From the NCBI RefSeq assembly GCF_000212395.1, contig NC_015499.1:1157421-1189420 (forward strand): 32,000 nt of DNA. Direction: 5' to 3'. Positions 3,904 through 24,915 of this stretch are shown piece after piece. The stretch's first letter is position 1. Each line of letters opens with the position of its first letter. Source of the stretch: Thermodesulfobium narugense DSM 14796 (GTDB taxonomy: Bacteria; Thermodesulfobiota; Thermodesulfobiia; Thermodesulfobiales; Thermodesulfobiaceae). Both the position numbers and the translations under genes were made by a program. The notes under the pieces were generated by a model. It was not told the origin of the DNA, did no database searches, and saw only the letters and a program-made list of their open reading frames with translations.

Positions 3904-3979
3904 TGGTGGGCGGTGTAGGAATCGAACCTACGACCTCTTGCATGTCAAGCAAGCGTTCCAACCACTGAACTAACCGCCC
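3904..3979 (-). tRNA. tRNA-Val, anticodon GAC, CCA encoded
   Basis: The minus strand reads GGGCGGT TA GTTC AGTGGTTG GAAC G CTTGC TTGACAT GCAAG AGGTC GTAGG TTCGATT CCTAC ACCGCCC A CCA. This is a 76-nt cloverleaf with 7-bp acceptor, 4-bp D, 5-bp anticodon and 5-bp T stems, and a TTCGATT T-loop. The anticodon loop TTGACAT gives GAC. Confidence 0.93.
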
Positions 3980-4062: not shown

Positions 4063-4947
4063 TTACTGTATACTCTTTAAAATTTTCTCGTATGACTCGT
4101 TTCTTTTAGAAAATTTATTTGAATACATTGATATATCAGCTCTTTTAAAGATACTTTCAAATTCTTCTTCTCTTGCATTTCCAACAGAATAGCCCATACT
4201 AAAATACAAAGGAACACTAATTCTATCCTTTAAATCTAAGTAAACTGATTTAATTCTCTGTATCAAATTTTCCATCAAATTAATATTTGCATGAGGAATA
4301 AGTATTGCAAACTCATCTCCTCCTACCCTACAAACTATATCGCTCTTACGAAAAGCCTTCCTAAGTATCTTAGCTATTCCTTGCAATGCCTTATCTCCAG
4401 CATGATGACCCAAAGAATCGTTGATTAACTTCATACCGTCTACGTCAAATACAAATACGCCTATCGGGTCCATTCTCCCATCACTATACTTTTTTATTTC
4501 ATTTTCAAAATAGTTTCTATTGTAAAGTCCCGTCAATTCATCGTGAAAACTTAAATATTTTAACTTTTCATTTTGTTGATATATATTTGACAAATCTTGA
4601 AAAACACAAAATCTATAAAAATTTTCATCAACTTTTACTAAATCCGAAATTAATAGAATATGCCTAAATTCATGATTTAATCTTTTTGTAAATACAAGAG
4701 AAATAGTATTTATCTTTTTTTCGAATTGTTCAATTAATCTTTTAATAATGTTATCGCCATCTTTACCAAAAAAACTATTATCCAGATTTATAGAATGATG
4801 TCCAAAAAAAGAAGAAAATTTTTTACTTTTTCCGATTATATTAAAACTTTCATCTATCACGCATATTACTAAGGAAGACAGATCAAAAAACACGCATTCT
4901 GAACTTTTAAGCGCTTTACATACTTTTTCCTGAATATCTTTCTCCAC
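4063..4947 (-). CDS. Diguanylate cyclase (GGDEF domain) with an N-terminal sensor region of unclear family
   Basis: 294-aa ORF with a GTG start after GGAGAGGAAG. The C-terminal GGDEF domain has an intact active site (RVGGDEFAIL). An RxxD inhibitory site lies 5 residues upstream (RKSD-IVCRV-GGDEF). Confidence 0.85.
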   Translation of the reverse strand: MEKDIQEKVCKALKSSECVFFDLSSLVICVIDESFNIIGKSKKFSSFFGHHSINLDNSFFGKDGDNIIKRLIEQFEKKINTISLVFTKRLNHEFRHILLISDLVKVDENFYRFCVFQDLSNIYQQNEKLKYLSFHDELTGLYNRNYFENEIKKYSDGRMDPIGVFVFDVDGMKLINDSLGHHAGDKALQGIAKILRKAFRKSDIVCRVGGDEFAILIPHANINLMENLIQRIKSVYLDLKDRISVPLYFSMGYSVGNAREEEFESIFKRADISMYSNKFSKRNESYEKILKSIQ

Positions 4948-9106: not shown

Positions 9107-10477
9107 ATGACATCAAGAACAAAGGAAAATAAATATATCAAAAGGATCATGTTTATCTTTTTACTATTGTTGATATCTTTAGTAAGTTACAACTTTTTAC
9201 CACCTTTACAAGTACAAGCAGCCTACGCAGCTGACTCAAACGAAACAAACGTTTTAACGCTTGAAGATGCGCTCAAAATTGCAAAGGAAAACAACAAGAC
9301 CCTTCAAGCACAATACTATCAGATGCAATCTGCAAAGGAAACGTATATCCAAGCATTAGGTTATAGATTGCCAAATATTACAGGATCTCTTAGCTACGAA
9401 AGGATTAGAGCAATGTCAACAAATAATGCATCTTATGGCTCAAAGGATAATTTTTCTTACTCCTTAGATGCAAATCAGCTTCTTTATGATTTTGGAGCAA
9501 CAAATTCATACATTCAAAGCGCCTATCATTCATATAAGCAAAGCGAAAAACAATATCTTGACACATTGAGGCAAATAGAATACCAAGTAAAACAAAGCTA
9601 TTTAAATGTCTTATCTGCTGAACAACTTTATGACACCGCGAAAGAAGGTTTAGATCTTGCTAATTTAATCTTAAAATATACTCAATCGGAATTTGATGTA
9701 GGTTTAGTTGCCAGATCAGACGTTCTCTCAGCAGAAGTTGAGGTTCAAAACGCAAAGATTTCGCTTTTAAATGCTAAAAATCAAATTAACGTAAGTCTTG
9801 CAAATTTAGCAAATGTATTAGGTTACGATCCTAGAAAAAGCTTTACAATATCCAAAACAGCATATGAAACTCCTCCTAAAGCTATAGCATCAAACTTTGC
9901 AGATCAGATTTTTTCTATTGCAATAAAAAATAGACCAGATATTGCGGCAGCTATAGAAGGTATTGATGCTGCAAGATATACCCTAAAAAATCTTAAAAGT
10001 TCTCTATATCCTAAAATTAATCTTGTTGGCGACTATTCAAGAAGCGACACCAAGTTTCCACCCGAAAATTATTCATGGTTTTACGGCATTACAGCAACAA
10101 TAACTTTTTACAACGGCGGACAAAACCTTTCAAAAATCAGACAGGAACAGGATATTCTTAATTCTTTGATAAAAACAAAGGATAATTTGGAGGATTCTAT
10201 AAAACTAGCCGTGTGGACAGATATCTTGAACCTAAACAACGCTTATTCTACATTTGAGCTTTCTGACGCAGCTGTAAAAAGCGCTCTTGAGAACCTAAGA
10301 GTAAACGAAGCTCAATATAGAGAGGGATTAAATTCTATAATTGATCTTACAACAGCTAGAAATAATTATATTTCAGCAAAAAATCAAAGAATTATAAATG
10401 AATACAATTACTACCTTAGTCTCGCTGCCCTTGAGAGAGACCTGGGTGTAAAATTTTTTAATATTGAAAATTACTAA
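9107..10477 (+). CDS. TolC-family outer membrane efflux protein
   Basis: 456 aa. The signal peptide ends ...LQVQAAYA/ADS. The mature N-terminus LTLEDALKIAKENNKTLQA is typical of outer membrane factors, and the coiled-coil/beta pattern is internally duplicated. The ATG directly abuts the upstream TAA (TAAATG). Confidence 0.85.
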   Translation: MTSRTKENKYIKRIMFIFLLLLISLVSYNFLPPLQVQAAYAADSNETNVLTLEDALKIAKENNKTLQAQYYQMQSAKETYIQALGYRLPNITGSLSYERIRAMSTNNASYGSKDNFSYSLDANQLLYDFGATNSYIQSAYHSYKQSEKQYLDTLRQIEYQVKQSYLNVLSAEQLYDTAKEGLDLANLILKYTQSEFDVGLVARSDVLSAEVEVQNAKISLLNAKNQINVSLANLANVLGYDPRKSFTISKTAYETPPKAIASNFADQIFSIAIKNRPDIAAAIEGIDAARYTLKNLKSSLYPKINLVGDYSRSDTKFPPENYSWFYGITATITFYNGGQNLSKIRQEQDILNSLIKTKDNLEDSIKLAVWTDILNLNNAYSTFELSDAAVKSALENLRVNEAQYREGLNSIIDLTTARNNYISAKNQRIINEYNYYLSLAALERDLGVKFFNIENY

Positions 10478-10511
10478 TCTTAGGAAACAAATTATTGCAT
10501 AAGGAGGAGAA

Positions 10512-11618
10512 ATGTTAAAGTTCTTTAAAAAGAAAAAAGTAATAGCTATAACTGCCGCCTTAATAATAATTCTTGCAATTGTATTGTACGGTTATAACAC
10601 ATATATAAACAATATGAAAAAATTACAACAAGAAGTTAAAACGGCACAAGTAACAAAAAGGACTATTACAGAAGTGGTAAATTCAACTGGTACTATCAAT
10701 CCACAAGTTGGCGCTCAAATTAACGTAGGAGCTAGAATTACAGGACAAGTAATAAAACTAAACGTACAGGTAGGAAGCGTAGTTCAGGCAGGAGAGGTTT
10801 TGGCTGAAATTGACCCAAGACCACAAATAGCTGCTCTTGAACAAGCTAAGTCGAATTATCAAGCAGCCCTAAGTAACTATAATTATGCAAAGGTAACCTA
10901 TGAAAGATATGCCAAATTATTTGAAGAAGGGCTTATTTCAAAAGATAAATATGACAATGCAAAAGCTAACTATTTAGCCCAAAAGGGTGCCGTTGATGCC
11001 GCTAAGGCAGCTGTCAATACCGCACAGGTAAACCTTGAATACTGTACAATTACAGCTCCAATAAGCGGAATGGTTTCAGCAGTTACTACACACCAGGGAG
11101 AAACAGTAGTATCCGGATTGAACGCCCCAAACTTTGTAACAATTGATGACCTTGATAAGCTCGAAGTAGATGCCTCAGTTGACGAAACAGATATTGGAAA
11201 AGTAAAGGTGGGAATGCCTGCTACATTTACAGTTCTTGCTTATCCTGACAAAACGTTTACAGGAACTGTTGCAGCAATATATCCAACTTCAACTGTGGTA
11301 AGTAACGTTGTTTACTATACAACGGTAATAAAAATTGATTCAAATCCTGAACATCTTTTGAGGCCAGGGATGACTGCAAACGTAAATATAAAAGTTCAAG
11401 AAAAGAAAGATGTATTAGCAGTACCAAATCTTGCTCTAAAAACATTTGGTAATCAAACAGTGGTTTTTGTAGAAACAAGCCCAGGAGTTTTTGAAAAAAG
11501 AGTAGTTAAAACTGGCATTTCAGATCTAGATTACACTGAGATAACCAGCGGCCTAAAAGAAGGAGATAAAGTGATTGTCGGAGATATTCCAGAAAGCTTA
11601 CTAAAAAAGATAAAATGA
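10512..11618 (+). CDS. HlyD/MacA-type periplasmic adaptor (membrane fusion protein)
   Basis: 368 aa with an N-terminal TM anchor, a lipoyl-like motif (G.V..L.V.VG..V..G.VLAEID), a coiled-coil hairpin and a beta-barrel domain. RBS: AAGGAGGagaaATG. Confidence 0.88.
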   Translation: MLKFFKKKKVIAITAALIIILAIVLYGYNTYINNMKKLQQEVKTAQVTKRTITEVVNSTGTINPQVGAQINVGARITGQVIKLNVQVGSVVQAGEVLAEIDPRPQIAALEQAKSNYQAALSNYNYAKVTYERYAKLFEEGLISKDKYDNAKANYLAQKGAVDAAKAAVNTAQVNLEYCTITAPISGMVSAVTTHQGETVVSGLNAPNFVTIDDLDKLEVDASVDETDIGKVKVGMPATFTVLAYPDKTFTGTVAAIYPTSTVVSNVVYYTTVIKIDSNPEHLLRPGMTANVNIKVQEKKDVLAVPNLALKTFGNQTVVFVETSPGVFEKRVVKTGISDLDYTEITSGLKEGDKVIVGDIPESLLKKIK

Positions 11619-12355
11619 GCGAAAAAATTATAGAATTAGAAAACATACAGAAGGTTTATAAATCCGGCACTCTTGAAACTGTTGTTTTAAGAGGTATAAG
11701 CTTTGTCATCAACAAGGGTGAATTTGCTTCTATTATGGCACCATCCGGAAGTGGAAAAACAACTCTAATGAACATAATAGGGTTATTGGATAGACCCACA
11801 GGTGGAAAATACTTTCTGGATAACAAGGAGGTCTCAAAACTATCAGATAACGAACTAGCTCATTTAAGAAATCAATATATAGGCTTTATATTCCAACAAT
11901 TCCATCTTTTGCCCGATCTTACGGCAATTGAAAATGTCTTGCTTCCTTCTGTCTATGCAAAAAATCCTCCACCAGACATCAAGGATAGGGCTAAAAAATA
12001 TCTTGAAACAGTAGGTTTAGGAGAAAGATTAAATTTTTATCCATCTGAGCTATCAGGTGGTCAACAACAAAGAGTTGCTATAGCAAGGTCTCTTATCAAT
12101 AGTCCTAAGTTAATTCTTGCCGATGAACCAACAGGTAACCTTGATCCACAATCTGGCATGGAAATATTGTCTGTCTTCCAAAAGCTTAATGAAGAAGGCA
12201 TAACAATATTGATGGTCACCCACTCACCTGAAATTGCACTTTTTACAAAAAAGGTAATTACCCTTAGCTTTGGCAAAGTGCTTAAAGAAGATATTGTGAA
12301 AAATCCCAAATCTGCTCAGGAAGAATTACAAAAGATGTATGTGATTAATACATGA
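11615..12355 (+). CDS. ABC transporter ATP-binding protein, MacB/LolD-type
   Basis: Walker A APSGSGKTT, Q-loop FIFQQFHLL, signature LSGGQQQRVAIARSL, Walker B ILADEPTGNLD, H-loop VTHS. The start overlaps the upstream stop (ATGA). Confidence 0.92.
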   Translation: MSEKIIELENIQKVYKSGTLETVVLRGISFVINKGEFASIMAPSGSGKTTLMNIIGLLDRPTGGKYFLDNKEVSKLSDNELAHLRNQYIGFIFQQFHLLPDLTAIENVLLPSVYAKNPPPDIKDRAKKYLETVGLGERLNFYPSELSGGQQQRVAIARSLINSPKLILADEPTGNLDPQSGMEILSVFQKLNEEGITILMVTHSPEIALFTKKVITLSFGKVLKEDIVKNPKSAQEELQKMYVINT

Positions 12356-13560
12356 TTATAAAAATTCTTTCTTCAGCAATTAAAATAAACTTAAAACAAG
12401 GCTTGAAGGTTTTCATTATGATCTCTGGAATATCTCTTTGTATTCTTGTAATTACTTTAGTAACATCAATAAGCCTAGGTGCAAGGCAGCTTGTAAACGA
12501 AACTCTTCAGCAATTTGGCCCAACTTCTATAATAGTTTTTGCAGGTGGCAGAAGACAACCAGGACAGCCTTTCCAAAGATCTACAACTATGACATTAGAC
12601 GATGTTCGCTCAATAAAGGATCAAATAAGTGGCATTGTAGCAATAGATCCCGAAGCAAACAGCAATATGAATGCAAAATATGGAGCACAAAACATAGATA
12701 CTAATATCTCAGGTGCAACACCATCATTCACTACCGCATGGGATTGGAACGTAGCTGAAGGAAGATTTTTTACCGAAAGAGAAAATGCTTCCATGTCAAG
12801 GGTAGCTGTAATCGGAACTACAGTTGCAAAGCAGTTATTTCAAGGAGAAAATCCACTTGGTAAGCTTATCAGAATTGGCACTACACCATTTACAGTAATT
12901 GGAGTATTAAGTTCACTTGGCACTACACCAAATGGTATGGATAGAGACAATAGAATTGTAATTCCACTTAACACTATGTTAAAAAGAATGCTAAACCAAA
13001 CATATATAACAATGATGAGAATAAAATTTGCACCAGGCACTAATATTAACGTTGTAGCAGGAGAAATTAGTACAATCCTAAGATACAATCACAAACTTAC
13101 TGCATCAGGTCTTCCAGATGACTTTACAATCATAACTCCTGATCAAGTAATGGAATTCTTAAACAGAATAAATTCAACTTTAAATATTTTTCTCGTTGTT
13201 TCAACAATAGTTGCAATAGTTATAGGCTCTGTTGTTGTTTCAAATATAATGCAGGCATCTATTTCTGAAAGAGAAAAAGAGATTGCTCTTAGAAGAGCGT
13301 TTGGGGCTACAAAATCACTTATTGTAACACAAGTTTTCCTTGAAATATTTGTGATCAGCATTATTGGTTCAGTTTTTGGAGCAACCTTAGGGGCTTTACT
13401 GGGAGTAATAATGGAACATTTCACAGGAATTCACGTTTCAATTAGTCCATTGCTGTTTCTTGTCGCATTTAGCGTATCTACAATAATAGCATTAATTGCT
13501 GGAATTCAACCAGCAATAAAAGCTAGTTCATATGATCCAGCAGTGGTCTTACAAAGATGA
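12352..13560 (+). CDS. ABC transporter permease, FtsX/MacB-type (paralogue 1)
   Basis: 402 aa: TM1, a large periplasmic domain, then three C-terminal TM helices with the FtsX motif (E.EKEIALRRAFGATK). ATGA overlap with the ATPase gene. Confidence 0.88.
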   Translation: MIIKILSSAIKINLKQGLKVFIMISGISLCILVITLVTSISLGARQLVNETLQQFGPTSIIVFAGGRRQPGQPFQRSTTMTLDDVRSIKDQISGIVAIDPEANSNMNAKYGAQNIDTNISGATPSFTTAWDWNVAEGRFFTERENASMSRVAVIGTTVAKQLFQGENPLGKLIRIGTTPFTVIGVLSSLGTTPNGMDRDNRIVIPLNTMLKRMLNQTYITMMRIKFAPGTNINVVAGEISTILRYNHKLTASGLPDDFTIITPDQVMEFLNRINSTLNIFLVVSTIVAIVIGSVVVSNIMQASISEREKEIALRRAFGATKSLIVTQVFLEIFVISIIGSVFGATLGALLGVIMEHFTGIHVSISPLLFLVAFSVSTIIALIAGIQPAIKASSYDPAVVLQR

Positions 13561-14777
13561 ACAATTTCTTTATTAACTTTTCACAGGCTTTAAGAAGCAT
13601 CTCTAGAAGAAAAAGAAAGTCTATACTTGCTATTTTAGGTTTTTTAATCGGTATAAGCGCTACAGTCATAATTGCAAGTATAAGTTCTGGAGTAAAAGAG
13701 AAAACAATTGAACAGATAAAGAGTATGGGCAGCAATATGATAGTAGTTACAGCAGGACAGCTCAAAATAATGGGAAATAGACCACATCAGGTCGGAAACG
13801 TAACCACTCTTACTCCCCTGGACTATACAATTCTAAAAAAGGATCTACCAAATGCAAAAATTGCAGCAACACAACAAAAAACATTTACAGTAAAATTCTC
13901 TGATTACAGCGCACAAACTACTATTATAGGTGCAACTCCAAGTCTGTTTAGCGTAAGAGGATATACAGTAAGTATGGGAAGAGAATTTACTTCCAGAGAG
14001 AATAGGCTTCGTGAAAGAGTAGCGATAATTGGTAGAACAGTAATACAAAATCTAAATGCAATACCAGAACAGCTTCTTAATGCAACAATTTTCATAAACA
14101 ATATCCCTTTTAGAGTTATAGGAATACAAGACCCTGTAGGAATTGATATTGGCGGACAAGATGAAGACAATCAGATAATCATCCCACTTGATACAGCTTT
14201 AGATAGGGTTCTTAACGTTACATATATTAATAATATTTACATTAGCGCACCACAAGAATATCTTATGAGTTCATATAAAGACGAAGTAATTAGGATTCTC
14301 AGAAAAAATCACAAACTTACAGACGACCAACAAAACGATTTTACCGTTCAGGACCAAAGCGACATAATTGCAGCTCAAACGAAATCTACTCAGACACTTG
14401 ATAACCTTACTGTGGCACTGGCCATGATAGCAGTCTTCATTGGCGGGTTAGGAATTGCTGCTGTTTTACTTGTCGCAGTAAAAGAACGAACCAAAGAAAT
14501 AGGTGTTAGAAAATCATTTGGTGCTACAAAACAGGATATTCTCACACAATTTTTTATTGAAGCAGCAATACTTTCTGGTTCTGGAACAATTTGTGGTATA
14601 TTAATAGGTTTGCTAATAACTTTTATAATAACTTTGTTTACAAAAATGCCTTTTGTAGTTCCATTTAACATCTTAATTCCCTTAATATTTATAGCATTTT
14701 TAATGGGAGTATTATTTGGAACAATACCAGCAAAAAAAGCTGCAGAAGTAGATCCTATAAGAGCCATTTACTCATAA
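13557..14777 (+). CDS. ABC transporter permease, FtsX/MacB-type (paralogue 2)
   Basis: 406 aa with the same architecture (ERTKEIGVRKSFGATK). ATGA overlap with paralogue 1. Confidence 0.88.
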   Translation: MNNFFINFSQALRSISRRKRKSILAILGFLIGISATVIIASISSGVKEKTIEQIKSMGSNMIVVTAGQLKIMGNRPHQVGNVTTLTPLDYTILKKDLPNAKIAATQQKTFTVKFSDYSAQTTIIGATPSLFSVRGYTVSMGREFTSRENRLRERVAIIGRTVIQNLNAIPEQLLNATIFINNIPFRVIGIQDPVGIDIGGQDEDNQIIIPLDTALDRVLNVTYINNIYISAPQEYLMSSYKDEVIRILRKNHKLTDDQQNDFTVQDQSDIIAAQTKSTQTLDNLTVALAMIAVFIGGLGIAAVLLVAVKERTKEIGVRKSFGATKQDILTQFFIEAAILSGSGTICGILIGLLITFIITLFTKMPFVVPFNILIPLIFIAFLMGVLFGTIPAKKAAEVDPIRAIYS

Positions 14778-14838: not shown

Positions 14839-15492
14839 TTATTGCTTCTTTAGCTCTTCATACCACAAAGCATTATGCTTCATTACGTACTCTTCATCAA
14901 TCATTCCATTCCCAAGCATTGTACCAAGTTCTTTTCTAGAACTAGGATTAATTGCTCCGAGATAAAAGTGGACAATAATTGCTGACCCCAAAAAAGTGCC
15001 GCAAAAAACGTGGACAATAATTGCTACTTGTATTAAATATCCTGGAAAAGATGCATAAAAGAACATCATCGAACCTGTAAGTCCAAGACATAAGGAAAAT
15101 ATAATTATTATCCAACCTAAAAGTTTTTGGCCTGCATTAATCTTGCCCTGTGGGGGTATTTCTTTTGCCTTTATAATTGGAGAAAGATATCCCCCAAAAA
15201 CCTTCATCCATTTTTTGTCTTCAGGAGTGAAAGTACTAATTAATTTCATAAAACCTGAAAATAATTTGAAGTTAAATATTGCATACAAAAGAGGCAGCAA
15301 AAGATAGAAAAAACCAAGATATTTATGAACAAAAGCAGCATTTCTGAGACTTCCAAAAGGTAGACTCATAACGTTCATTGGAGGATAAAACAATGACAAC
15401 CCAGTCCACAACATGGTTATAAAGGTTATAAGATGTAACCAATGAAATATTCGGGTAGCTTTTTTATGTTTTTCAATCATCCTCTTTGCCAT
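14839..15492 (-). CDS. fdnI: Formate dehydrogenase gamma subunit (cytochrome b, FdnI-type), copy 1
   Basis: 217 aa with four hydrophobic helices and conserved His (HWLH, HKYLG, HVFCG, HFYL). The ATG overlaps the fdnH TAA by 1 nt (TAATG). It is the last gene of the Cys-type operon. Confidence 0.85.
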   Translation of the reverse strand: MAKRMIEKHKKATRIFHWLHLITFITMLWTGLSLFYPPMNVMSLPFGSLRNAAFVHKYLGFFYLLLPLLYAIFNFKLFSGFMKLISTFTPEDKKWMKVFGGYLSPIIKAKEIPPQGKINAGQKLLGWIIIIFSLCLGLTGSMMFFYASFPGYLIQVAIIVHVFCGTFLGSAIIVHFYLGAINPSSRKELGTMLGNGMIDEEYVMKHNALWYEELKKQ

Positions 15493-16271
15493 TACTGATC
15501 GCCTCCTTTATTTCCTGCCTGTATAAGCCTGTGGAGAAACACAAGTCCAGCAGCACCGCCTAACATGACCAACCCCAGTGGGTGCATAATATTTTTCCAA
15601 ATGAGAGTATTTGCTGGAAAAACTGGATTTTTCGGCAATCCATATTTTTCGGGCTCATATTTAAGTATAGATAATACTCCTAGCCCTCCTAGTATGTTTT
15701 CTCCATAAAGATTTGCTTCTGTAAACCCTTCTTTTTTCAAGACCTCTACTCTTTCTTTACCTTGTTTTACAAGATCATCTCTTTTTCCAAAATAAAGTGC
15801 ACCACCTAAGCATGCCTTCACACATGCAGGAGTAGAAGTCTCGTCAGACTTACTGCCATCAATAACTCTTGAATAACACATATCGCATTTATTTATTACC
15901 TTACCAATTTGAGGAATTCCAAAGGGACATGCACTGTGACAATAACCACATGCTATACATTTGTTCACGTCAAAGGCAACTATCCCATTCTCTGCCTGAA
16001 AAAGAGCTCCACTTGGGCAGGCTTTTACACAGGCAGGCTCTCCACAATGAAAACATTGATACTTTAAAAAGTTAAAGTTCTGTTTTTCTGTGAAATCATC
16101 ATAAAAATTTATGATCATACGCGTATGCGGATTCAGGCTTGGTGGATTGGTATAAAAACCTGTAAAAGTAGTTGGATCGGTTTTCTGATCGTTCCATTGT
16201 TTACAAACAGACTGGCACCCTCTACAACCCATGCATTTAGAAGAATCAAACATATAGGCCACTCTTTCCAT
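15492..16271 (-). CDS. fdnH: Formate dehydrogenase iron-sulfur beta subunit (FdnH-type), copy 1
   Basis: 259 aa with ferredoxin-type Cys clusters (CMGCRGCQSVC, CFHCGEPACVKACP, CIACGYCHSACP, CDMCY) and a C-terminal TM anchor (LGLVMLGGAAGLVFL). The ATG lies 1 nt after the fdnG stop, and the SD GAGGAGGG sits inside the fdnG 3' end. Confidence 0.9.
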   Translation of the reverse strand: MERVAYMFDSSKCMGCRGCQSVCKQWNDQKTDPTTFTGFYTNPPSLNPHTRMIINFYDDFTEKQNFNFLKYQCFHCGEPACVKACPSGALFQAENGIVAFDVNKCIACGYCHSACPFGIPQIGKVINKCDMCYSRVIDGSKSDETSTPACVKACLGGALYFGKRDDLVKQGKERVEVLKKEGFTEANLYGENILGGLGVLSILKYEPEKYGLPKNPVFPANTLIWKNIMHPLGLVMLGGAAGLVFLHRLIQAGNKGGDQ

Positions 16272-16272
16272 C

Positions 16273-19269
16273 TTAGGCCCTCCTCAAGTTAATCATCAAA
16301 GCTTTTGATTCCTGAATCTCAGAAGTTGGATCTCCAACATTTTCAGTCATAAGATTAGCTGAAAAAATTTCATTTTTACCGCTATCAGGATCGATTCCTA
16401 CAAACCCCCAATGCCACGGTATACCTACTATATGAAACTTTTTGCCGTCAATTATCACAGGCTGCAACCTAGACGTTACACAAGCTTGAGCCTTTACTTT
16501 GCCCCTAATAGATTCAAGCTCTACTTTGTCTCCGTTTTTAATTCCAAGTTCTTTTGCTAATTCAGGATCTATTTCAGCAAATACTTGTGGCATTTCTTCA
16601 ACCAAAATTGGAATTTTTCTAGTTATAGATCCACTTTGATAGTGTTCAGTCAATCTATATGTAGTACATATATATGGATATTTCGGATCGTTTAAAGGAG
16701 CGTATTTATCAATATCTGATTTGAAAATTATAGCTACAGGATTATTTTGTACAGGACTTAAAAGATTTTTCACAGGAGCTTCAATAGGCTCATAGTGTTC
16801 TGGGAAAGGACCATCCTTAACCAGACCTGATGGCACAAAGAGTCTTCCTCCACCTTCTGGTATCATTATGAAAGGAGCATCACCACCAGGAGCATCCGGC
16901 GCCTTTGTTGGAAGAAAATCTGGCACATCTGGACCAGTCCATTTTTTTTGAGCAGCATCCCATTTTATAACAGTTAGTTTTGGATTCCAAGGTTTGCCTT
17001 CAAGATCACAGCTAGCTCTATTGTAAAGAATTCTTCTATTTACAGGCCAAGACCATGCCCACTCAGAATTAAGCCCTATTCCCTCTTTTTCAGGCTTTCT
17101 TCTTGCAGCCAGATTTCCAGCAGGAGGATACACACCAGAATATATCCAACAGCCACATGCCGTAGAACCGTCGTCTTTGAGAGCTGCAAAACTAACTAAC
17201 TGCTTTTTTGTACTTACCTCAAACCCATTAATCTCTTTTAAAACAGAATCGATATCATATTTATCTCCACCATAACCCCATGTTAAGTTAAGCATGCCTT
17301 CAGGTGAAGGAGTAGAAGGATCATCTTTAAACTGTTTTTTTAAACCAACCACTAGCTTATCCAATATAACCATATCTTCTTTTGATTCATACATAGGTTC
17401 TATTGCCTTATACCTCATCTGAAGCCATCTGGAAGTATTAGTAGCTGAGCCATCCTTCTCAACAAAGGATGAAACTGGCAACATAAAAACTTCAGTCTTT
17501 ATGCCTTTTGGATTTGCGCCCGGCCTTTTCCAGAAATTTGCAGTCTCAGTTTCAAAAAGATCTGCAACCATAAGCCACTCAAGATTTTCCAAAGCTTTGC
17601 CAGTTTTATCTCCAAGCGGACTTGATACCAGAGGATTTTGTCCCCAGATCATCATTCCCTTTATCCCCTCATTTTTATACAAATTATCCCAAATATACAT
17701 CCAGGAAGCAGGTTTGGACCACTTTGGAAGCCAATCATATCCAAAATCGTTTTCTTTTGTTGCCGCATCCCCAAACCATGCTTTAAGCATGCTGACGACA
17801 AATTTTGGTGCATTAGACCAATAACAATCAGGAAGTGTAATCTTTTTTAGATATTCTTTAAAATTTGGATGAAGTTTTTCATTGGGAGCTGCTAGATATC
17901 CGGGTAAAGAATTATACAAAAGAGCCATATCCGTTGAGCCTTGAACGTTAGTCTCACCCCTCATAGCATTTACACCACCACCAGCCATACCTATGTTACC
18001 TAATAAAAGTTGAATAATACAAAAAGCTCTAATGTTTTGTGTACCAATTGTGTGCTGAGTTAAACCCATTGCATACATCAATGTGCCAGATTTATCAGGC
18101 GCACCAGTGGAGCTATACAACTTAGCTATTTCAAGAAATGTTTCTTTGTTTATGCCTGTAACCTTCTCCACAACTTCAGGAGTATATCTAGAATAATGTA
18201 CTTTCATTTTTTGAAAAACACAGTTTGGATCTTTAAGGGTCATATCCCTTAGTGGCTTATTATCAGGTCCAGTTTGGTAGGCCCAGCTTGCATAATTATA
18301 GGTTTTACTTTTTATATCCCATCCTGAAAAGTATCCATCCTTAAAATCATATTCAGGTTTTAAAAGATATGAAGCATTTGTGTAGTGCTTTACATAAGTT
18401 TCTTGATATTTATTATTCTGAAGAATATAGTTTATCAAACCCCCGAAAAAGGCAATATCAGTTCCAGGCCTTATTTGCGCATAGATATTTGAAAGTGCAG
18501 AAGTTCTAGTAAATCTTGGATCTACAGAAATGACTTTCCCACCACGTTCTTTACACATATTAATATATCGCGCGCTGCCTGGATGATTTTCTGCAGGATT
18601 TCCACCACAAATCATTATTACATCAGAATTTTTCACATCTATTAGCGAATTTGTCATTGCCCCTCTCCCAAAACTAGGGCCTAATGCTGTAACAGTAGAA
18701 GAGTGGCAGATTCTTGCCTGATGTTCAAGATATACAATGCCTAATGCTCTAGCAAATTTAGCAAACAGATAACATTCATCAGTGCCGTGAGCTGCTCCTC
18801 CAAGCATCGCAAGCCCCTCAGTTCTATTTACTGTTACTCCGTTTGACGTCTTTACAAACGAACTATCTCTGGTTTTTTTGATTCTTTTGACAAGCTCAGA
18901 AATAGTCCAATCCCAGCTTTTCTCTTCCCACTTGTCAGAACCAGGAGCCCTATACATTGGTTTTTTCAACCTCAATGGGCTATCGTAAATACTAAAACAG
19001 GTAGAACCCTTTGCACAAAGCCCGCCTTCGCTATTTGGATTATCTGGATCACCTTCTATGTTTACCACTTTACCACCTTTGGAATATACCAACAGTCCAC
19101 ACCCAACCCCACAATAAATGCACACAGAATTAGTAACCTTGGTATCCTTTAGCTTAAAAGGTATACTTGCGTGCGCTAATTTTGGTACAGCTACATTACC
19201 ATCTAATACCATCATTGAAGCACTAACAAAGGAAAACTTAAGAAAATCCCTTCGATTAAATTTCCCCAT
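16273..19269 (-). CDS. fdnG: Formate dehydrogenase catalytic alpha subunit (Mo/W-bis-PGD, FdnG-type), cysteine isoform
   Basis: 998 aa. It has a twin-arginine signal MGKFNRRDFLKF and an N-terminal Fe-S motif CIYCGVGCG...CAKG. The active-site block is EHQARICHSSTV, with Cys188 encoded by TGC at 18706..18708. RBS: GGGAGtgaaatgaATG. Confidence 0.93.
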   Translation of the reverse strand: MGKFNRRDFLKFSFVSASMMVLDGNVAVPKLAHASIPFKLKDTKVTNSVCIYCGVGCGLLVYSKGGKVVNIEGDPDNPNSEGGLCAKGSTCFSIYDSPLRLKKPMYRAPGSDKWEEKSWDWTISELVKRIKKTRDSSFVKTSNGVTVNRTEGLAMLGGAAHGTDECYLFAKFARALGIVYLEHQARICHSSTVTALGPSFGRGAMTNSLIDVKNSDVIMICGGNPAENHPGSARYINMCKERGGKVISVDPRFTRTSALSNIYAQIRPGTDIAFFGGLINYILQNNKYQETYVKHYTNASYLLKPEYDFKDGYFSGWDIKSKTYNYASWAYQTGPDNKPLRDMTLKDPNCVFQKMKVHYSRYTPEVVEKVTGINKETFLEIAKLYSSTGAPDKSGTLMYAMGLTQHTIGTQNIRAFCIIQLLLGNIGMAGGGVNAMRGETNVQGSTDMALLYNSLPGYLAAPNEKLHPNFKEYLKKITLPDCYWSNAPKFVVSMLKAWFGDAATKENDFGYDWLPKWSKPASWMYIWDNLYKNEGIKGMMIWGQNPLVSSPLGDKTGKALENLEWLMVADLFETETANFWKRPGANPKGIKTEVFMLPVSSFVEKDGSATNTSRWLQMRYKAIEPMYESKEDMVILDKLVVGLKKQFKDDPSTPSPEGMLNLTWGYGGDKYDIDSVLKEINGFEVSTKKQLVSFAALKDDGSTACGCWIYSGVYPPAGNLAARRKPEKEGIGLNSEWAWSWPVNRRILYNRASCDLEGKPWNPKLTVIKWDAAQKKWTGPDVPDFLPTKAPDAPGGDAPFIMIPEGGGRLFVPSGLVKDGPFPEHYEPIEAPVKNLLSPVQNNPVAIIFKSDIDKYAPLNDPKYPYICTTYRLTEHYQSGSITRKIPILVEEMPQVFAEIDPELAKELGIKNGDKVELESIRGKVKAQACVTSRLQPVIIDGKKFHIVGIPWHWGFVGIDPDSGKNEIFSANLMTENVGDPTSEIQESKALMINLRRA

Positions 19270-19281
19270 TCATTTCACTCC

Positions 19282-19323
19282 CTTGATAGTGAATATATTT
19301 TTTAATTTCAAAACACTATCAAG
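19282..19323. promoter_or_regulatory. Perfect 10-bp inverted repeat (candidate operator or leader hairpin) directly upstream of the fdnG-Cys SD
   Basis: cttgatagtg (19282..19291) and cactatcaag (19314..19323) are exact reverse complements separated by 22 nt. On the minus strand this reads CTTGATAGTG-n22-CACTATCAAG-GGAG(SD). The distal arm contains a TTGATA -35-like hexamer, and a TATATT -10-like hexamer lies between the arms (19-nt spacer). Confidence 0.35.
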
Positions 19324-19519
19324 TTTATAATAACATATTAAATTGGTAAAATAATCATTATCAAATTTAAATATTTTAAAAAAATGCTTATAAATGCTTA
19401 TATAAATAAAATATTTTTATACCATCGTTATGAAAATCAGGAGTTTTTTACAAATTGAACATTTATAAGTAATTTTACAATAAAATATTATAAAAAAGAC
19501 TTATTATTAATAATAAATA

Positions 19520-20305
19520 TTATTTGCTAATCCAAGAAGCGGCGTAAAAAATCTTAAACCATGAAGGCCTAAAATCCATATCTTTCATCGATATGTCTAA
19601 ATTCCAGCTGGATAGATAAAGCAAGGGATAAAGGTGTGTATCCTCATTTTTCTCCCTTAAGTCAAGAACCTTTAAATACATCCCACAAGCTTCACAAACC
19701 TCTACTCTCCATCCAGGAAGCTCATCTGCGCTATAATATCTCATAGACTTTTGTTCTTCATCAGCACATAGAGGGCAAACTGTCCTCCTGTGTCCCCATC
19801 TCGTATAACAGGTAGAACACACCAAACTTTTTTTCCCGTCTCCCTCAATAAAGCCTATGCCAGCACTTGAACCACAAACAGGACAAACTGGCTCATACCA
19901 TTTTGCAAGGTTACATCTTTTCGAAAGTATTTCACCAATATAAGAATAGATAGAAGAATAAACTAGTAGCTTTACAAAACCAATTTTATCCTCAGATAAA
20001 TTCAATTTATCAAATATTGTCAAACTTTTTTCATCAAAACGTACTTTTTCCTTAATTCCAAAATCATCCTTTACAATTTTCGCCAAAAAATTTAAATCCT
20101 TTTTGTACATTTTTAATTTAAATAATTCTAAATAAGACCTTCCTTCGTCAAATACTTTTTTAAATTCTTCTGTATCAATGCTTTCTTCAGGTATAAAGTC
20201 AATTATTTTGGTCAACAAACTTTCCCTACAGGAATAGTATTTATCCCAAAATTCGACCACAGACTCTAATATTGGATACTTTTCAACAAATTTTGTTAAA
20301 TTCAT
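19520..20305 (-). CDS. fdhE: Formate dehydrogenase accessory protein FdhE
   Basis: 261 aa with four CxxC motifs in the C-terminal half (CPVCGS, CSTCYTRW, CPLCADE, CEACGMYLK), as in FdhE. RBS: GGAGGttatggATG. It lies between the two FDH operons. Confidence 0.8.
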   Translation of the reverse strand: MNLTKFVEKYPILESVVEFWDKYYSCRESLLTKIIDFIPEESIDTEEFKKVFDEGRSYLELFKLKMYKKDLNFLAKIVKDDFGIKEKVRFDEKSLTIFDKLNLSEDKIGFVKLLVYSSIYSYIGEILSKRCNLAKWYEPVCPVCGSSAGIGFIEGDGKKSLVCSTCYTRWGHRRTVCPLCADEEQKSMRYYSADELPGWRVEVCEACGMYLKVLDLREKNEDTHLYPLLYLSSWNLDISMKDMDFRPSWFKIFYAASWISK

Positions 20306-20398
20306 CCATAACCTCCAGTAATTTGACTAACTTAGACAAATTTTTAAAAACAAAATTATCAGTTCATAATTATTCTGCTATTATTAAACGTTAACAAG

Positions 20399-20436
20399 AT
20401 TTGAGTGCAAAGTCAAATTAGACTTTGCACTCAAAT
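20399..20436. terminator. Strong stem-loop between fdnI copy 2 and fdhE (terminator, attenuator or RNA-stability element)
   Basis: atttgagtgcaaagtc (20399..20414) and gactttgcactcaaat (20421..20436) form a perfect 16-bp stem with a 6-nt loop. It starts 55 nt after the fdnI-2 stop. On the coding (minus) strand the trailing U-tract is weak (aucuuguu). Confidence 0.5.
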
Positions 20437-20490
20437 TAAATTTTATTTACTTCTATTTAACACTTAATCTACTTAATTTTTAAAAGTTTA

Positions 20491-21141
20491 CTATTTTTTC
20501 AACTCCTCATACCACAGAGCATTGTGATGCTTCACATAATCTTCATCTATCATGCCGCTTCCAAGCATTGTCCCCAGTTCTTTGTTCGAAGTAGGATTGA
20601 TCGCAGCAAGGTAAAAATGAACTATTACTGCAGCCCCCAAGAATGTGCCACAAAATACGTGAATCATTATAGCTATTCGAACAAGTAGTCCAGGGAAAGA
20701 CGCATAATAGAACATTATCAATCCTGTTAAACCAAGCAAAATTGAAAACACTATTATTATCCACCCTAAAAGCTTTTGTCCTGCATTGTATTTCCCCTGA
20801 GGTGGGACTTCATCAGCCTTTATTATAGGATGCAAATAACCGCCCAATATAGAGAGCCATTTCTTATCCTCAGGCGTAAACGTACTAATTGTTTTAAAGA
20901 AATTGGAAAACAGTTTAAAGTTCCAAGAAACATAAATTATTGGAAGAATTACATAAAACCATCCAAGATATTTGTGAATAAAGGCTGCGTTTCTAAGACT
21001 TCCAAATGTCATGCCTAGCACATTAGTCCATGGATAAAACAAGGAAAATCCTGTCCATAACATGATTATAAAAGTTATAAGGTGCAGCCAGTGAAAAATC
21101 CTTGTATTCTTTTTGTGCTTCTCAATCTTATTTGCAGCCAC
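20491..21141 (-). CDS. fdnI: Formate dehydrogenase gamma subunit (cytochrome b, FdnI-type), copy 2
   Basis: 216 aa, collinear with copy 1 (for example KIEKHKKNTRIFHWLHLITFI). The GTG start overlaps the fdnH-2 TAG by 1 nt (TAGTG). Confidence 0.85.
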   Translation of the reverse strand: MAANKIEKHKKNTRIFHWLHLITFIIMLWTGFSLFYPWTNVLGMTFGSLRNAAFIHKYLGWFYVILPIIYVSWNFKLFSNFFKTISTFTPEDKKWLSILGGYLHPIIKADEVPPQGKYNAGQKLLGWIIIVFSILLGLTGLIMFYYASFPGLLVRIAIMIHVFCGTFLGAAVIVHFYLAAINPTSNKELGTMLGSGMIDEDYVKHHNALWYEELKK

Positions 21142-21920
21142 TACTGTTCACCTCCCTTTTTCCCCAGGTTGAGCGCCCTATGAAGCACAACAAGGCCAGC
21201 TGCGCCTCCTAGCATTATTACTCCCAAAGGATGCAATATCCCTTTCCACAAGCCAATATCATTAGGAAACACAGGTTCTTTTGGAAGACCATATTTTTCA
21301 GGAGAATATTTTAGTATAGCAAGAACTCCGAGCCCTCCAAGTATATTTTCTCCATAAAGATTGGCTTCCGTATAGCCTTTCTTTTTCAGAACCTCAACTC
21401 TTTTCTTACCTTGCTCAACCAAATCACTTCTCTTTCCAAAAGTAAGTGCACCTGCAGGGCAGCTTTTTACACATGCTGGAATAGAAGTCTTATCAGACTC
21501 AGAGCCTTCCATTACTCTTGAATAACACATGTCACATTTGTTTATTACCTTGCCAATTTGAGGAATTCCAAAGGGACATGCACTGTGACAATAACCACAA
21601 GCAATGCACTTATTTTCGTCAAATGCTACTATTCCGTTTTCCGCTTGGAAAAGAGCTCCGCTTGGACATACCTTTACACATGCAGGATCTCCGCAATGAA
21701 AACACTGATATTTCAAAAAGTTAAAATTTGGATCTGGAGTAAAGTTGTCATAAAATTTTATAATCATCCTCGTATCAGGATTCAGGCTGGGCGGATTGGT
21801 ATATACCCCCTTAAACGTCGTAGGAACAGTCTCTTGATCGTTCCATTCTTTACAAATACTTTGACATCCTCTACAACCCATGCACTTAGAAGAATCATAC
21901 ATATAGGCCACTCTTTCCAT
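21141..21920 (-). CDS. fdnH: Formate dehydrogenase iron-sulfur beta subunit (FdnH-type), copy 2
   Basis: 259 aa with the same Cys-cluster layout and C-terminal TM anchor as copy 1. The ATG lies 1 nt after the fdnG-2 stop. Confidence 0.9.
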   Translation of the reverse strand: MERVAYMYDSSKCMGCRGCQSICKEWNDQETVPTTFKGVYTNPPSLNPDTRMIIKFYDNFTPDPNFNFLKYQCFHCGDPACVKVCPSGALFQAENGIVAFDENKCIACGYCHSACPFGIPQIGKVINKCDMCYSRVMEGSESDKTSIPACVKSCPAGALTFGKRSDLVEQGKKRVEVLKKKGYTEANLYGENILGGLGVLAILKYSPEKYGLPKEPVFPNDIGLWKGILHPLGVIMLGGAAGLVVLHRALNLGKKGGEQ

Positions 21921-21921
21921 T

Positions 21922-24915
21922 TTAGGCCCTCCTCAAGTTAATCATCAAAGCTTTTGATTCTGGAATGAGGCTAGTCGGATCGCCAACATTCTCTGTTACA
22001 AGATTCGCAGCATAAGATTCGTCTTTACCACTATCTGGGTCTATACCAACAAAGCCCCAGTTCCATGGGATTCCAACTACATGATATTTTTTGCCGTTGA
22101 TTACCATAGGCTGAACTCTAGTAGTGACACATGCTTTTGCCTTAACTTTTCCCCTTATAGATTCCAATTCTACATCGTCGCCATCTTTAATTCCCAGCTC
22201 TTTAGCAAGCTCTGGATCAATCTCAGCAAATACTTGTGGCATTTCTTCTACAGTTACAGGTATTTTTCTTGTTATTGCACCAGATTGATAATGTTCTGCA
22301 ACTCTATAAGTAGTACAAATGTATGGATATTTTGGATCGTGAAGTGGAGCGTATTTGTCTATATTTGATTTGAATATCAAAGCAATTGGATTGTTTTGAA
22401 CAGGGTTTACTTTATTTTCAACAGGGGATTCAATTGGCTCATAGTGTTCAGGGAATGGCCCATCTTTTACCAGTCCGCCTGGCACAAATAGTCTGCCCTG
22501 CCCGCCAGTTAGCATGATAAAAGGCAAAGTACCTCCTGGATCTGTGGGAGCTTTTGTGGGCAAGAAATCAGGTACATCTCTTCCAACCCATTTTTTCTGT
22601 GACGAATCCCACTTTATTACATATTTTTCTGGATTCCATGGGTTGCCTTCTAGATCACATCCTGCTCTATTATATAAAATTCTTCTGTTCACAGGCCATG
22701 CCCAACCCCATTCAGGATTAAGTCCCAACCCTGTTTTTTCTGGCTTTCTTCTTTTCGCAAGGTTCCCAGCAGGCGGATACATTCCAGAGTATATCCAACA
22801 ACCACTCGTTGTAGAACCATCGTCTTTTAGCGCTGCAAAGCCCGGAACTTGTTTTTTAGTTGCTACTTCAAACCCATTAATTTCTTTAAATACCTCATCA
22901 GCGCTGTGGTTATGACCACCATAGTTCCACGTTAAATTCAGTATTGCTTCTGGATTTGGCGTTGACGGATCTGCTTTTACTAACTCTTTTATCTTATATA
23001 TCAGATCGTGCAATATTACAGAATCTTCCCTACACTCATATAGAGGCTCAACTGCCTTGTATCTCATCTGAAGCCATCTGGAGGTATTTGTAGCTGAACC
23101 GTCTTTCTCTACCATTGAAGCTACAGGCAATAAAAATACTTCCGTTTTAATACTCTTTGGATCTGCATGTGGTCTTTTCCAGAAATTAGCAGTCTCAGTC
23201 TCAAACAAATCTGCAACCATTAACCATTCTAGATTTTCAAGAGCCTTACCCGTTTTTTCAGCAAATGGGCTGGATACCAATGGGTTTTGACCCCAAATCA
23301 TCATTCCCTTAATTCCTTCTTTTTTGTATAAATTGTCCCATATGTGCATCCATGAAGCAGGCTTAGACCACTTTGGCAGCCAATTATACCCGAAATCATT
23401 TTCTTTTGTAGCTGCATCACCAAACCATGCCTTAAGCATGCTTATAATAAACTTCGGAGCATTAACCCAATAACTATCAGGAGCAATAGATTTTTTAATA
23501 AATTCCTGAAGATTTGGATGCAATTTGTCGTTTGGTGATGGCAAGTAACCTGGAAGGGTATGGAACAAAAGGCCCATATCAGTAGAACCCTGAACATTTG
23601 CCTCACCCCTCATAGCGTTTACCCCGCCACCAGCCATACCCATATTTCCTAACAGAAGCTGAATTATACAAAAGGCTCTGATGTTCTGCGTTCCCACAGT
23701 GTGTTGAGTAAGACCCATAGCATAAATTAAGCATCCTGACTTATCTGGTGCTCCTGTGGAAGAATAAACTTCAGCAATCTTTAGAAAAGTTTCTTTTTTC
23801 ATTCCAGTAACATTCTCGACTACTTCTGGCGTATATCTTGAGTAGTGCTTTGCCAGTCTTTGAAACACACAATTTGGATCTTGGAGTGTCATGTCTTTCA
23901 AGACTTTTTTATCTGGTCCTGTTTGAAATCCCCAGGTTGCATAATTGTACATCTTTTTTGCCTCATCCCATCCAGAAAAATGGCCATCTTTGAAGTCAAA
24001 TTCAGGATTCAACAACCATGAGGCATTAGTATAATTCTTAAGATAAATTTCCTGATATTTTTTGTTTTGAATTATATAGTTGATTAAACCACCAAAAAAT
24101 ACGATATCTGTTCCTGGTCTTATTGGCGAATATATATCAGAAAGCGAAGAAGTTCTCGTAAACCTTGGATCTACAGAAATAACTATCCCACCTGAATCCT
24201 TGCACATATTAATATATCTTGCTATAGCAGGGTGATTTTCAGCAGGATTTCCCCCACAAATCATAATTACATCTGAATTTCTTACATCAGTTAAAGGATT
24301 TGTCATTGCACCTCTTCCAAAACTTGGACCCAAACTGGTCACTGTGGAAGAGTGTCATATACGTGCCTGATGTTCAAGATAAACTATCCCAAGCGATCTT
24401 GCAAATTTAGACAATAGATAACATTCATCAGTATCATGGGATGCCCCTCCAAGCTGAACAAGACCTTCGGTTCTGTTTACTGGAACTCCCCCCACTTCCT
24501 TAACAAAGGTTTCATTCCTTGTTTTCAGGATTCTTTTTGCTACCTCATTAATAGTCCAGTCCCAGCTCTTTTCTTCCCATTTATCAGAACCAGGTGCTCT
24601 ATACATAGGTTTCTTCAATCTCAGAGGATTGGAATAAACGTAGAAAGACGTTGCACCTTTTGCACAAAGTCCGCCTTCGTTGTTAGGATTGTCAGGATCG
24701 CCTTCAATGTTTACTACTTTACCATCTTTTGCATAAACAAGAAGTCCACATCCTACACCACAGTAAATACATACTGAAGGACTTACTTTAGTGTCTTTTA
24801 ACTTGAAGGGTTTTACAGAAGCCTGTGCAGGCACAGCAATATTGCCGTCCATTACCATTGCTGTAGCGCCAGCAAACGTAAGCTTTAAGAAGTCCCTCCT
24901 TCTAAGCTTCCCCAT
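21922..24915 (-). CDS. fdnG: Formate dehydrogenase catalytic alpha subunit (FdnG-type), selenocysteine isoform; in-frame UGA at 24357..24355 read as Sec
   Basis: Track ORFs 24355..24915 and 21922..24342 are in the same frame. The junction reads CAT CAG GCA CGT ATA TGA CAC TCT TCC ACA GTG ACC, that is HQARI-U-HSSTVT. This is collinear with HQARICHSSTVT in the paralogue. It also has a Tat signal (MGKLRRRDFLKL), an Fe-S motif (CIYCGVGCG) and a SECIS-like hairpin immediately 3' of the UGA. Confidence 0.88.
24309..24354 (-). promoter_or_regulatory. SECIS-like mRNA stem-loop immediately downstream of the UGA codon
   Basis: mRNA: UGA CACUCUUCCA CA G(U)GACC AGUUUG GGUCC AAGUUU UGGAAGAG(G)UG. The lower stem is 10 bp with one bulged G. 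The apical helix is 4-5 bp with a possible bulged U. The 6-nt loop is centred about 19-24 nt after the UGA. Confidence 0.65.

Follow-up and report, generated by a model that had tools for sequence, protein, structure and literature searches.

FdhA, the alpha subunit of formate dehydrogenase (FDH), is the most widespread bacterial selenoprotein, recorded in 822 organisms (PMC5029168). In Escherichia coli, the FDH-N alpha subunit FdnG (selenocysteine [Sec] 196; PDB entry 1KQF) belongs to the NCBIfam equivalog TIGR01553, has a twin-arginine translocation (Tat) signal and an in-frame UGA, and is encoded with a beta (4Fe-4S) partner, FdnH, and a gamma (cytochrome b) partner, FdnI. The reference SelB-binding hairpin is that of E. 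coli fdhF, a 40-nucleotide (nt) selenocysteine insertion sequence (SECIS) directly past the UGA, in which nt 15 to 31 form the upper stem-loop and a bulged U17 and the loop nucleotides G23 and U24 contact SelB; these three nucleotides are reported as what SelB recognizes in the E. coli SECIS (PMC8659212). The general rule for bacterial elements is a G at loop position 1 or 2 (PMC13582414). Here, a 32,000-nt stretch of Thermodesulfobium narugense DSM 14796 (contig NC_015499.1, positions 1,157,421 to 1,189,420; the window, in whose coordinates positions are given) was analyzed around an in-frame TGA in an FDH alpha subunit gene, fdhA. A sequence-only reading had held this TGA to be a Sec codon with its own SECIS and not a gene break, and comparative evidence supports that view. 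The UGA at codon 187 is very probably read as Sec by way of a hairpin on its 3′ side, which would make fdhA a single, unbroken gene encoding the catalytic alpha subunit of an FDH of the FdnGHI type that is periplasmic and anchored in the membrane.

Translation of 24915..21922 (minus strand) ran through 997 codons and met only one stop among them, the TGA of codon 187 (24357..24355), in the context ...LEHQARI*HSSTVTSLGPSFGRGAMT... (also written EHQARI*HSSTVT). The two open reading frames (ORFs) on either side, both on the minus strand and in a common frame, are 24355..24915 (186 aa) and 21922..24342 (806 aa); the coordinates of this split in the sequence-only reading were exact, and its placement of the TGA within HQARI-U-HSSTVT was borne out by translation. 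An ATG at 24915 is preceded by the Shine-Dalgarno sequence GGGAG, residues 5 to 10 of the translation form the twin-arginine motif RRDFLK, and the N-terminal 4Fe-4S Cys motif CIYCGVGCG...C lies in the 186-aa piece, which matches PF04879 (Molybdop_Fe4S4). The joined alpha subunit has a predicted mass of 111 kDa (∼108 kDa without the signal), close to the ∼110 kDa proposed earlier, and the predicted peptide spanning the Sec site is ARI-U-HSSTVTSLGPSFGR, or I-U-HSSTVTSLGPSFGR in its tryptic form. Gene callers split the gene into 186 aa and 792, 794, or 806 aa, and the 186-aa piece has been deposited as a protein of its own, as had been foreseen for automated annotation. The only practical consequence is that metabolic reconstructions built on such split models (186 aa plus ∼800 aa) may count the gene as broken. 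TGA is the ordinary stop codon of 5 of the 25 long ORFs in the window. The codon has thus not been reassigned globally, and any recoding must be local.

The joined protein, with Cys written at residue 187 in place of U, was compared with PDB sequences using phmmer. The top match was the tungsten FDH of Desulfovibrio gigas (1H0H; E value, 6.5e−285), followed by Desulfovibrio vulgaris FdhAB (8CM4/6SDR; E value, ∼1e−279), which is described as "selenocysteine-containing," and E. coli FdnG (1KQF; E value, 1.5e−262). Residue 187 aligned directly to the X denoting the crystallographic Sec in 1H0H_A, 8CM4_A, and 6SDR (EHQARI-X-HS), and the residues around it, EHQARI-U-HS, are identical in the D. gigas and D. 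vulgaris enzymes, the best structural relatives. The UGA therefore falls on the Mo/W-ligating Sec or Cys of FdnG/FdhF-family enzymes, as the sequence-only reading had it. Both of these relatives are soluble dimers of an alpha and a beta subunit and have no cytochrome b subunit, unlike the operon in the window, which resembles E. coli FdnGHI in its Tat signal, in the homologous position of its UGA, and in having genes for beta and gamma partners, as judged by their best-matching families. Against TIGR01553 (formate dehydrogenase-N subunit alpha), the N-terminal piece matched positions 2 to 194 (187.4 bits) and the C-terminal piece positions 196 to 1008 (973.4 bits; cut-off, 814.2). Only position 195 is left uncovered, so the UGA accounts for exactly one profile position. 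The alpha subunit is thus a member of the FdnG/FdhA family of Sec enzymes.

These alignments bear on whether the two ORFs could instead be a genuinely split gene, in which a 186-aa FeS/Tat piece and an 806-aa catalytic piece, the latter made by re-initiation at GTG 24342, are assembled later. A GTG does open the 806-aa ORF 12 nt past the TGA, but it lies within the conserved hairpin described below, and no Shine-Dalgarno sequence was found before it. Made separately, the 806-aa protein would also be missing the residue that binds the metal, along with the His and Ser next to it. Moreover, only a single profile position separates the two pieces, and the constraint on synonymous sites past the TGA fits an RNA structure rather than a start site. 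A split gene is accordingly most improbable.

Proteins clustering at 90% identity with those of the window came from T. narugense (metagenome-assembled genomes [MAGs]), Thermodesulfobium acidiphilum, and Thermodesulfobium sp.; among the cluster mates of the 186-aa piece were 11 further distinct variants, every one of which stops at residue 186. All 16 Thermodesulfobium loci examined, from metagenomes or MAGs, had TGA at codon 187, and in the 10 of them that extended far enough, the next stop was codon 998. Relative to three lineages, synonymous divergence (dS) is near saturation (0.97 to 1.26), and the ratio of nonsynonymous to synonymous divergence (dN/dS) is 0.023 to 0.040 upstream of the UGA and 0.031 to 0.034 downstream. 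Strong purifying selection thus acts on the 810 codons past the UGA just as it does on the 186 ahead of it, and this excludes a pseudogene. This conservation of the UGA and the selection across it are direct observations, as is its position on the catalytic Sec. That the TGA is a nonsense mutation, with the Cys-type paralogue doing the work, could be argued from the two fragments reported by gene callers, from the functional paralogue 5.65 kb away, and from a hairpin energy within the range of chance. Such a decayed gene would not, however, be expected to keep the TGA in every Thermodesulfobium lineage sampled at a dS of ∼1, nor 810 downstream codons free of a second stop or frameshift; TGA is also the majority state among orthologues from other phyla, and a downstream dN/dS of 0.03, equal to that upstream, leaves this explanation effectively refuted and scarcely credible.

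Using RNAfold, the region 3′ of the UGA gave a minimum-energy fold of −16.8 kcal/mol. Numbering from the U of UGA (+1, 24357), an 8-bp lower stem pairs C6-A13 with U39-G46 (24352-24345/24319-24312) and is separated by an internal loop from a 4-bp upper stem, GACC/GGUC, that pairs +18 to +21 with +28 to +31 (24340-24337/24330-24327). The upper stem is capped by the hexaloop A22-G23-U24-U25-U26-G27 (AGUUUG; +22 to +27, 24336-24331), which includes G23 (24335), a G at loop position 2 in agreement with the rule for bacterial elements, and U24 (24334). U17 (24341) may be bulged: a fold with the bulge and a G16-C32 pair is possible and has an energy of −14.9 kcal/mol, compared with −15.7 kcal/mol for the fold that lacks the bulge. 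A two-tier hairpin starting on the nucleotide after the UGA had been proposed; the two tiers were found, but the +3/+4 pairs adjoining the UGA, although present in the fold, are not conserved. The apical loop does lie 19 to 24 nt past the UGA, as had been put forward. In bacterial SECIS elements, as modeled for bSECISearch, the apical loop is ∼16 to 37 nt from the UGA, and the hairpin fits this geometry, being a stem-loop inside the ORF directly 3′ of the UGA with its loop at +22 to +27.

Synonymous sites in this segment carry a constraint of their own. Relative to the Thermodesulfobium lineage of locus L090, there were no synonymous differences in the 16 codons past the UGA where 7.7 were expected (P = 5e−6), and in a 16-codon sliding window, this was the only stretch of the gene with none. 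The lineage of locus L083 has three synonymous changes, at +27 in the apical loop, +33 in the internal loop, and +48, which in the fold pairs only with A3 of the UGA, a pairing that is not conserved. Synonymous changes past the UGA therefore avoid the stable stem positions, so that an RNA-level constraint on the hairpin is also directly observed. The change at +27 (G27A) settles the register: the partner of C21 is G28 rather than G27, so that the loop is a hexaloop, AGUUUR, and folding with a pentaloop instead costs 7 kcal/mol more.

The hairpin was also compared with described elements. Its U17, G23, and U24, and likewise A22, occupy the positions they have in E. coli K-12 fdnG, a gene annotated in RefSeq as a single coding sequence across its UGA; the two segments, with fdnG taken by accession, are identical at 36 of 54 nt, and no match to the region was obtained in E. 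coli genomes by BLASTN. The upper stem of fdnG, GCA(A)/(U)UGC around AGUCUU, differs from GACC/GGUC with AGUUUG both in sequence and in register. In relation to fdhF, U17, G23, and U24 are again in place; the fdhF loop is GGUC compared with the 6-nt AGUUUG of the window, and U17 is bulged in fdhF, whereas in the window the bulge is possible at a cost of 0.8 kcal/mol. Among Rfam models, SECIS_3 (RF01989) matched without gaps over all 59 of its positions (E value, 2.1e−7 locally and 1.9e−5 over the whole window). The UGA of the model falls on that of the window and the CC-AGU-UGG apex is aligned, the consensus being visibly an FdhA SECIS, although several lower-stem pairs are noncanonical in the register of the model. 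The RNA thus resembles SECIS_3 and the fdnG and fdhF elements and would be expected to work as a bacterial SECIS. Other weak Rfam matches in the window (mir-2814, Plastid-ycf2, Histone3, and others) were far under their gathering scores and were treated as chance.

A scan of GTDB species genomes recovered 80 FdhA loci, 68 of which had the Sec-site motif. Across these orthologues from many phyla, the codon at the Sec site was TGA in 61 and TGC or TGT in the other 7. In the TGA loci, three third-codon positions are near fixed (+21 C in 49, +24 U in 57, and +27 G in 56 of 61), while others vary freely. The helix joining +18 to +21 with +27 to +30 is paired in 87% of cells, compared with 27 to 56% in slid controls, and its +18/+30 pair, in which both partners are synonymous sites, covaries (CG, 24; UA, 16; GC, 3; GU, 3), with a score reached by none of 500 shuffles. 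In the 54 nt past the Sec codon of these loci (L003 to L081), the apex was GGUCU in 33, AGUUU in 13, GCUCU in 11, and GGGCU or GGACU in 4. The hairpin of the window is in the AGUUU class, together with loci from Ignavibacteria, Zixibacteria, and Bacteroidota. Relatives of the D. gigas and D. vulgaris FDHs (L074, Desulfovibrionaceae; L067, Desulfomicrobium) are in the GCUCU class with the hairpin peak at ∼+27 to +29; hairpins of this class are shifted to ∼+20 to +36 and have a GGC loop. Lower stems occur in two registers, which correlate with whether Ser is encoded by UCN or AGY and Arg by AGR or CGN.

Several results weigh against the assignment of the hairpin as a SECIS. Its stability gave z-scores of only −1.06 to −1.39 relative to dinucleotide shuffles, and the corresponding segment of the Cys-type paralogue folds as well (−17.0 kcal/mol; z = −1.41), because the complementarity of its lower stem has been kept. 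The upper stem is just 4 to 5 bp and one register off that of most orthologues. The SECIS_3 match, at 38.5 bits, is below the gathering score of 63; at gathering thresholds, an Rfam search of the window returned only a tRNA, and SECIS_3 appeared only at E-value thresholds. RNAalifold on 52 distinct TGA sequences returned no single consensus structure. Finally, neither the window nor ∼50 kb of linked contigs contained a tRNA-Sec, selA, or selB.

Folding had been suggested as a check, with the lack of a stable hairpin to count as refutation. A hairpin of −16.8 kcal/mol was obtained, but its stability is within chance, and fold energy, which separates the Sec site from neither the Cys site nor shuffled sequence, was rejected as evidence; the proposed refutation is weak in both directions. 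The significance of the hairpin comes instead from the comparative evidence. With the SECIS_3 gathering score in mind, the element is called a related variant and not a formal member of that family; the Cys-type site, for comparison, scored 18.3 bits (E value, 0.17 locally) with the upper hairpin unmatched. The lack of an RNAalifold consensus reflects the mixing of at least three SECIS classes (GGUCU, AGUUU, and GCUCU), and for this reason pairs were counted on a named structure.

The machinery for Sec was sought beyond the window, which has no selD either, nor do its flanks in L001. ARAGORN found no tRNA-Sec on the window or on contigs L001 and L099, and when the SelB from L046 was searched against a protein collection, none from Thermodesulfobium was among the best 120 of 7939 matches. 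The window overlaps the Logan contig SRR090707_44. Using a Thermodesulfobium SelD sequence printed in the supplement of PMC12013277, selD, one of the genes that the sequence-only reading had named for a genome-wide search, was located on contig SRR090707_13 (L099) of the same sequencing run (TIGR00476, 311.8 bits). It has an in-frame TGA of its own at the canonical active-site position (L099:9836-9838, VRCAG-U-AAKL), followed by a two-tier hairpin with the apical loop AGGUG, and gene callers start it 165 nt too late, giving 283 aa. The same organism thus has a second canonical UGA selenoprotein gene, and the co-occurrence of selD is likewise a direct observation.

For selA, selB, and tRNA-Sec, published records give indirect support. 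T. narugense DSM 14796 is listed as Sec utilizing with 2 known selenoproteins, the trait being defined by SelD/SelA/SelB (Peng et al. 2016, PMC5029168 Table S2), and the deep-Sep paper lists Thermodesulfobiota as Sec utilizing by the criterion of SelB or SelA plus SelD (PMC12013277). Its supplement prints four selenoproteins for Thermodesulfobium sp. clean6954, including a Sec-containing SelD and an FdhA (...EHQARIUHSSTVTSLGPSFGRG...) that is the orthologue of the window gene; two others are small proteins. A Sec-type group 4g hydrogenase is also reported for T. narugense (PMC13582414). With the genus and the FdhA orthologue already in published selenoproteome lists, the Sec codon is nothing new in kind. 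The same records bear on recoding of the UGA to a residue other than Sec, either to Cys by a tRNA-ReC-type (SelC*) tRNA or to Trp or Cys by near-cognate read-through. tRNA-ReC-like tRNAs with SECIS-dependent UGA recoding do exist in some bacteria (PMC13582414), but the run contains a UGA-bearing selD, the genus is catalogued as Sec utilizing by SelB or SelA plus SelD, and UGA-to-Cys decoding would be redundant, since a Cys-encoding paralogue is already there. Such recoding has only a slim chance of being correct.

For Sec at codon 187, we infer SelB binding and selenium insertion along the following lines. The UGA would be decoded cotranslationally and site specifically. The mRNA just 3′ of it would form the two-tier hairpin, the apical loop presenting G23 and U24, and SelB with GTP and Sec-tRNA(Sec) would bind this loop, the hairpin being ∼11 to 20 nt into the mRNA behind the A-site UGA. 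SelB would then bring Sec-tRNA(Sec) to the A site of the ribosome, competing there with release factor 2 for the UGA, after which the ribosome would unwind the SECIS and translate it as HSSTVTSLGPSFGRG. The Sec so inserted would become the sixth ligand of the Mo/W bis(molybdopterin guanine dinucleotide) cofactor.

Table 1. Features of the Sec-type and Cys-type fdh operons in the window, and selD on contig L099
Feature	Coordinates	Strand	Basis or remarks
Sec-type formate dehydrogenase alpha gene (fdhA/fdnG-like)	21922..24915	-	997 codons + TAA, complete; Tat signal RRDFLK; ~111 kDa
In-frame UGA, codon 187; predicted Sec codon supplying the Mo/W ligand	24355..24357	-	Structure alignment; orthologue and genus conservation
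Putative SECIS hairpin, +6..+46	24312..24352	-	RNAfold and comparative evidence
Rfam RF01989 SECIS_3, full-length match	24302..24360	-	38.5 bits; E = 1.9e-5 over window
fdhB, iron-sulfur beta subunit, Sec-type operon	21141..21920	-	TIGR01582, 222 bits, below cut-off of 334.7; best family
fdhC, cytochrome b gamma subunit, Sec-type operon	20491..21141	-	TIGR01583, 114.9 bits, narrowly below cut-off of 115.85; best family
FdhE-like accessory protein gene, between the two operons	19520..20305	-	TIGR01562, C-terminal half only, E = 2e-12, under cut-off
Cys-type alpha paralogue, 998 aa	16273..19269	-	TGC 18708..18706 in place of UGA
fdhB2, Cys-type operon	15492..16271	-	NCBIfam profile search
fdhC2, Cys-type operon	14839..15492	-	NCBIfam profile search
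selD	L099:9791-10852		GTG start after GGAGG; TIGR00476 and in-frame reading upstream

The alpha gene is part of two complete fdhABC operons in direct tandem (14839-24915, minus strand), the Sec-type first and then the Cys-type, with an FdhE-like gene between them (Table 1). The beta and gamma subunits, unlike the alpha subunit, score below the cut-offs of the curated FdnH/FdnI-type families. E. coli FdnGHI has no such tandem Cys paralogue operon, and the host of the window is, unlike E. coli, a thermophilic sulfate reducer of a deep-branching phylum. The order Sec operon, fdhE, Cys operon is kept in a Thermodesulfobium-like MAG (L002:1-9391), which at 77% identity was the best match in a scan of genome contigs. 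Contig SRR090707_44, from a short-read assembly of the isolate, ends inside the Sec-type alpha gene, probably owing to the operon duplication. Neither the Cys paralogue nor T. acidiphilum P0045 matched a contig in exact protein look-ups.

In the paralogue, the motif at the Sec site reads EHQARICHSSTVT (wider context, ...LEHQARICHSSTVTALGPSFGRGAMT...), with TGC at 18708..18706. Its separation from the Sec codon is 5649 nt, so the Cys codon and the 5.65-kb distance noted earlier were both correct. The two alpha proteins are 78.7% identical, and the closest FdhA outside the Thermodesulfobium lineage is only ∼50% identical to either copy. The copies therefore appear to have arisen by duplication within the lineage, being 79% identical to each other against ∼50% to the closest FdhA outside it. 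At the Cys site (18660-18708, minus strand), the 8-bp lower-stem complementarity CUCUUCU/GGGAGAG is kept and gives the fold of −17.0 kcal/mol noted above; the upper hairpin is absent, and C23 and A24 stand in place of G23 and U24. In the Cys copy of L002, one pair of the lower stem is also broken. As most outgroup orthologues are Sec type and a decaying lower stem has been kept, the Cys copy looks like a Sec-to-Cys convert with the remains of its SECIS, and would illustrate how a SECIS decays after such a conversion.

Methanococcus maripaludis offers a parallel. In one report (PMC11097638), this organism is described as having pairs of selenium-dependent and selenium-independent enzymes, the Cys forms being used in selenium depletion. 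As in the window, paralogous Sec and Cys versions of one redox enzyme are found in the same genome. The operons of the window are in direct tandem, unlike the M. maripaludis pairs, and the response to selenium is known for Methanococcus, whereas here it is the genes alone that are compared. By analogy with these isoenzymes, the Cys copy, which needs no selenium, is possibly a backup for times when selenium is scarce.

Taken further, these features may be combined into a tentative proposal, one that we hold to be somewhat doubtful. The window would contain a lineage-specific SECIS variant, with a GACC/GGUC stem shifted by one register, a hexaloop AGUUUR, and a subthreshold SECIS_3 score, in a tandem Sec-fdhABC/fdhE/Cys-fdhABC arrangement that acts as a selenium-responsive isoenzyme switch, the Cys copy being a within-lineage Sec-to-Cys convert with a decaying lower stem. 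The tandem operons form a natural system in which to study how a thermophilic sulfate reducer responds to the supply of selenium, and perhaps of W or Mo.

The selD gene on L099 lies in an apparent ATP-binding cassette (ABC) transporter operon (L099:6978-15513) composed of a HlyD-like gene, two ABC ATPase genes, selD, and an ABC-2 permease gene. Two genes for TauE/SafE-family membrane proteins are found just downstream of this operon. A link between this neighborhood and the transport of selenium or sulfur anions is possible.

Elsewhere in the window, translations of the region 9107-14777 (plus strand) identified a TolC-like outer-membrane protein, an HlyD-type adaptor, an ABC ATPase, and two FtsX-type permeases, a gene set that looks like an ordinary MacAB-like efflux system. 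At 4063-4947 (minus strand), a gene adjoining tRNA-Val (3904-3979) and the threonyl-tRNA synthetase (ThrRS) gene encodes a protein of 294 aa, in the translation of which a GGDEF (diguanylate cyclase) motif, RVGGDEF, is seen at the C-terminal end.

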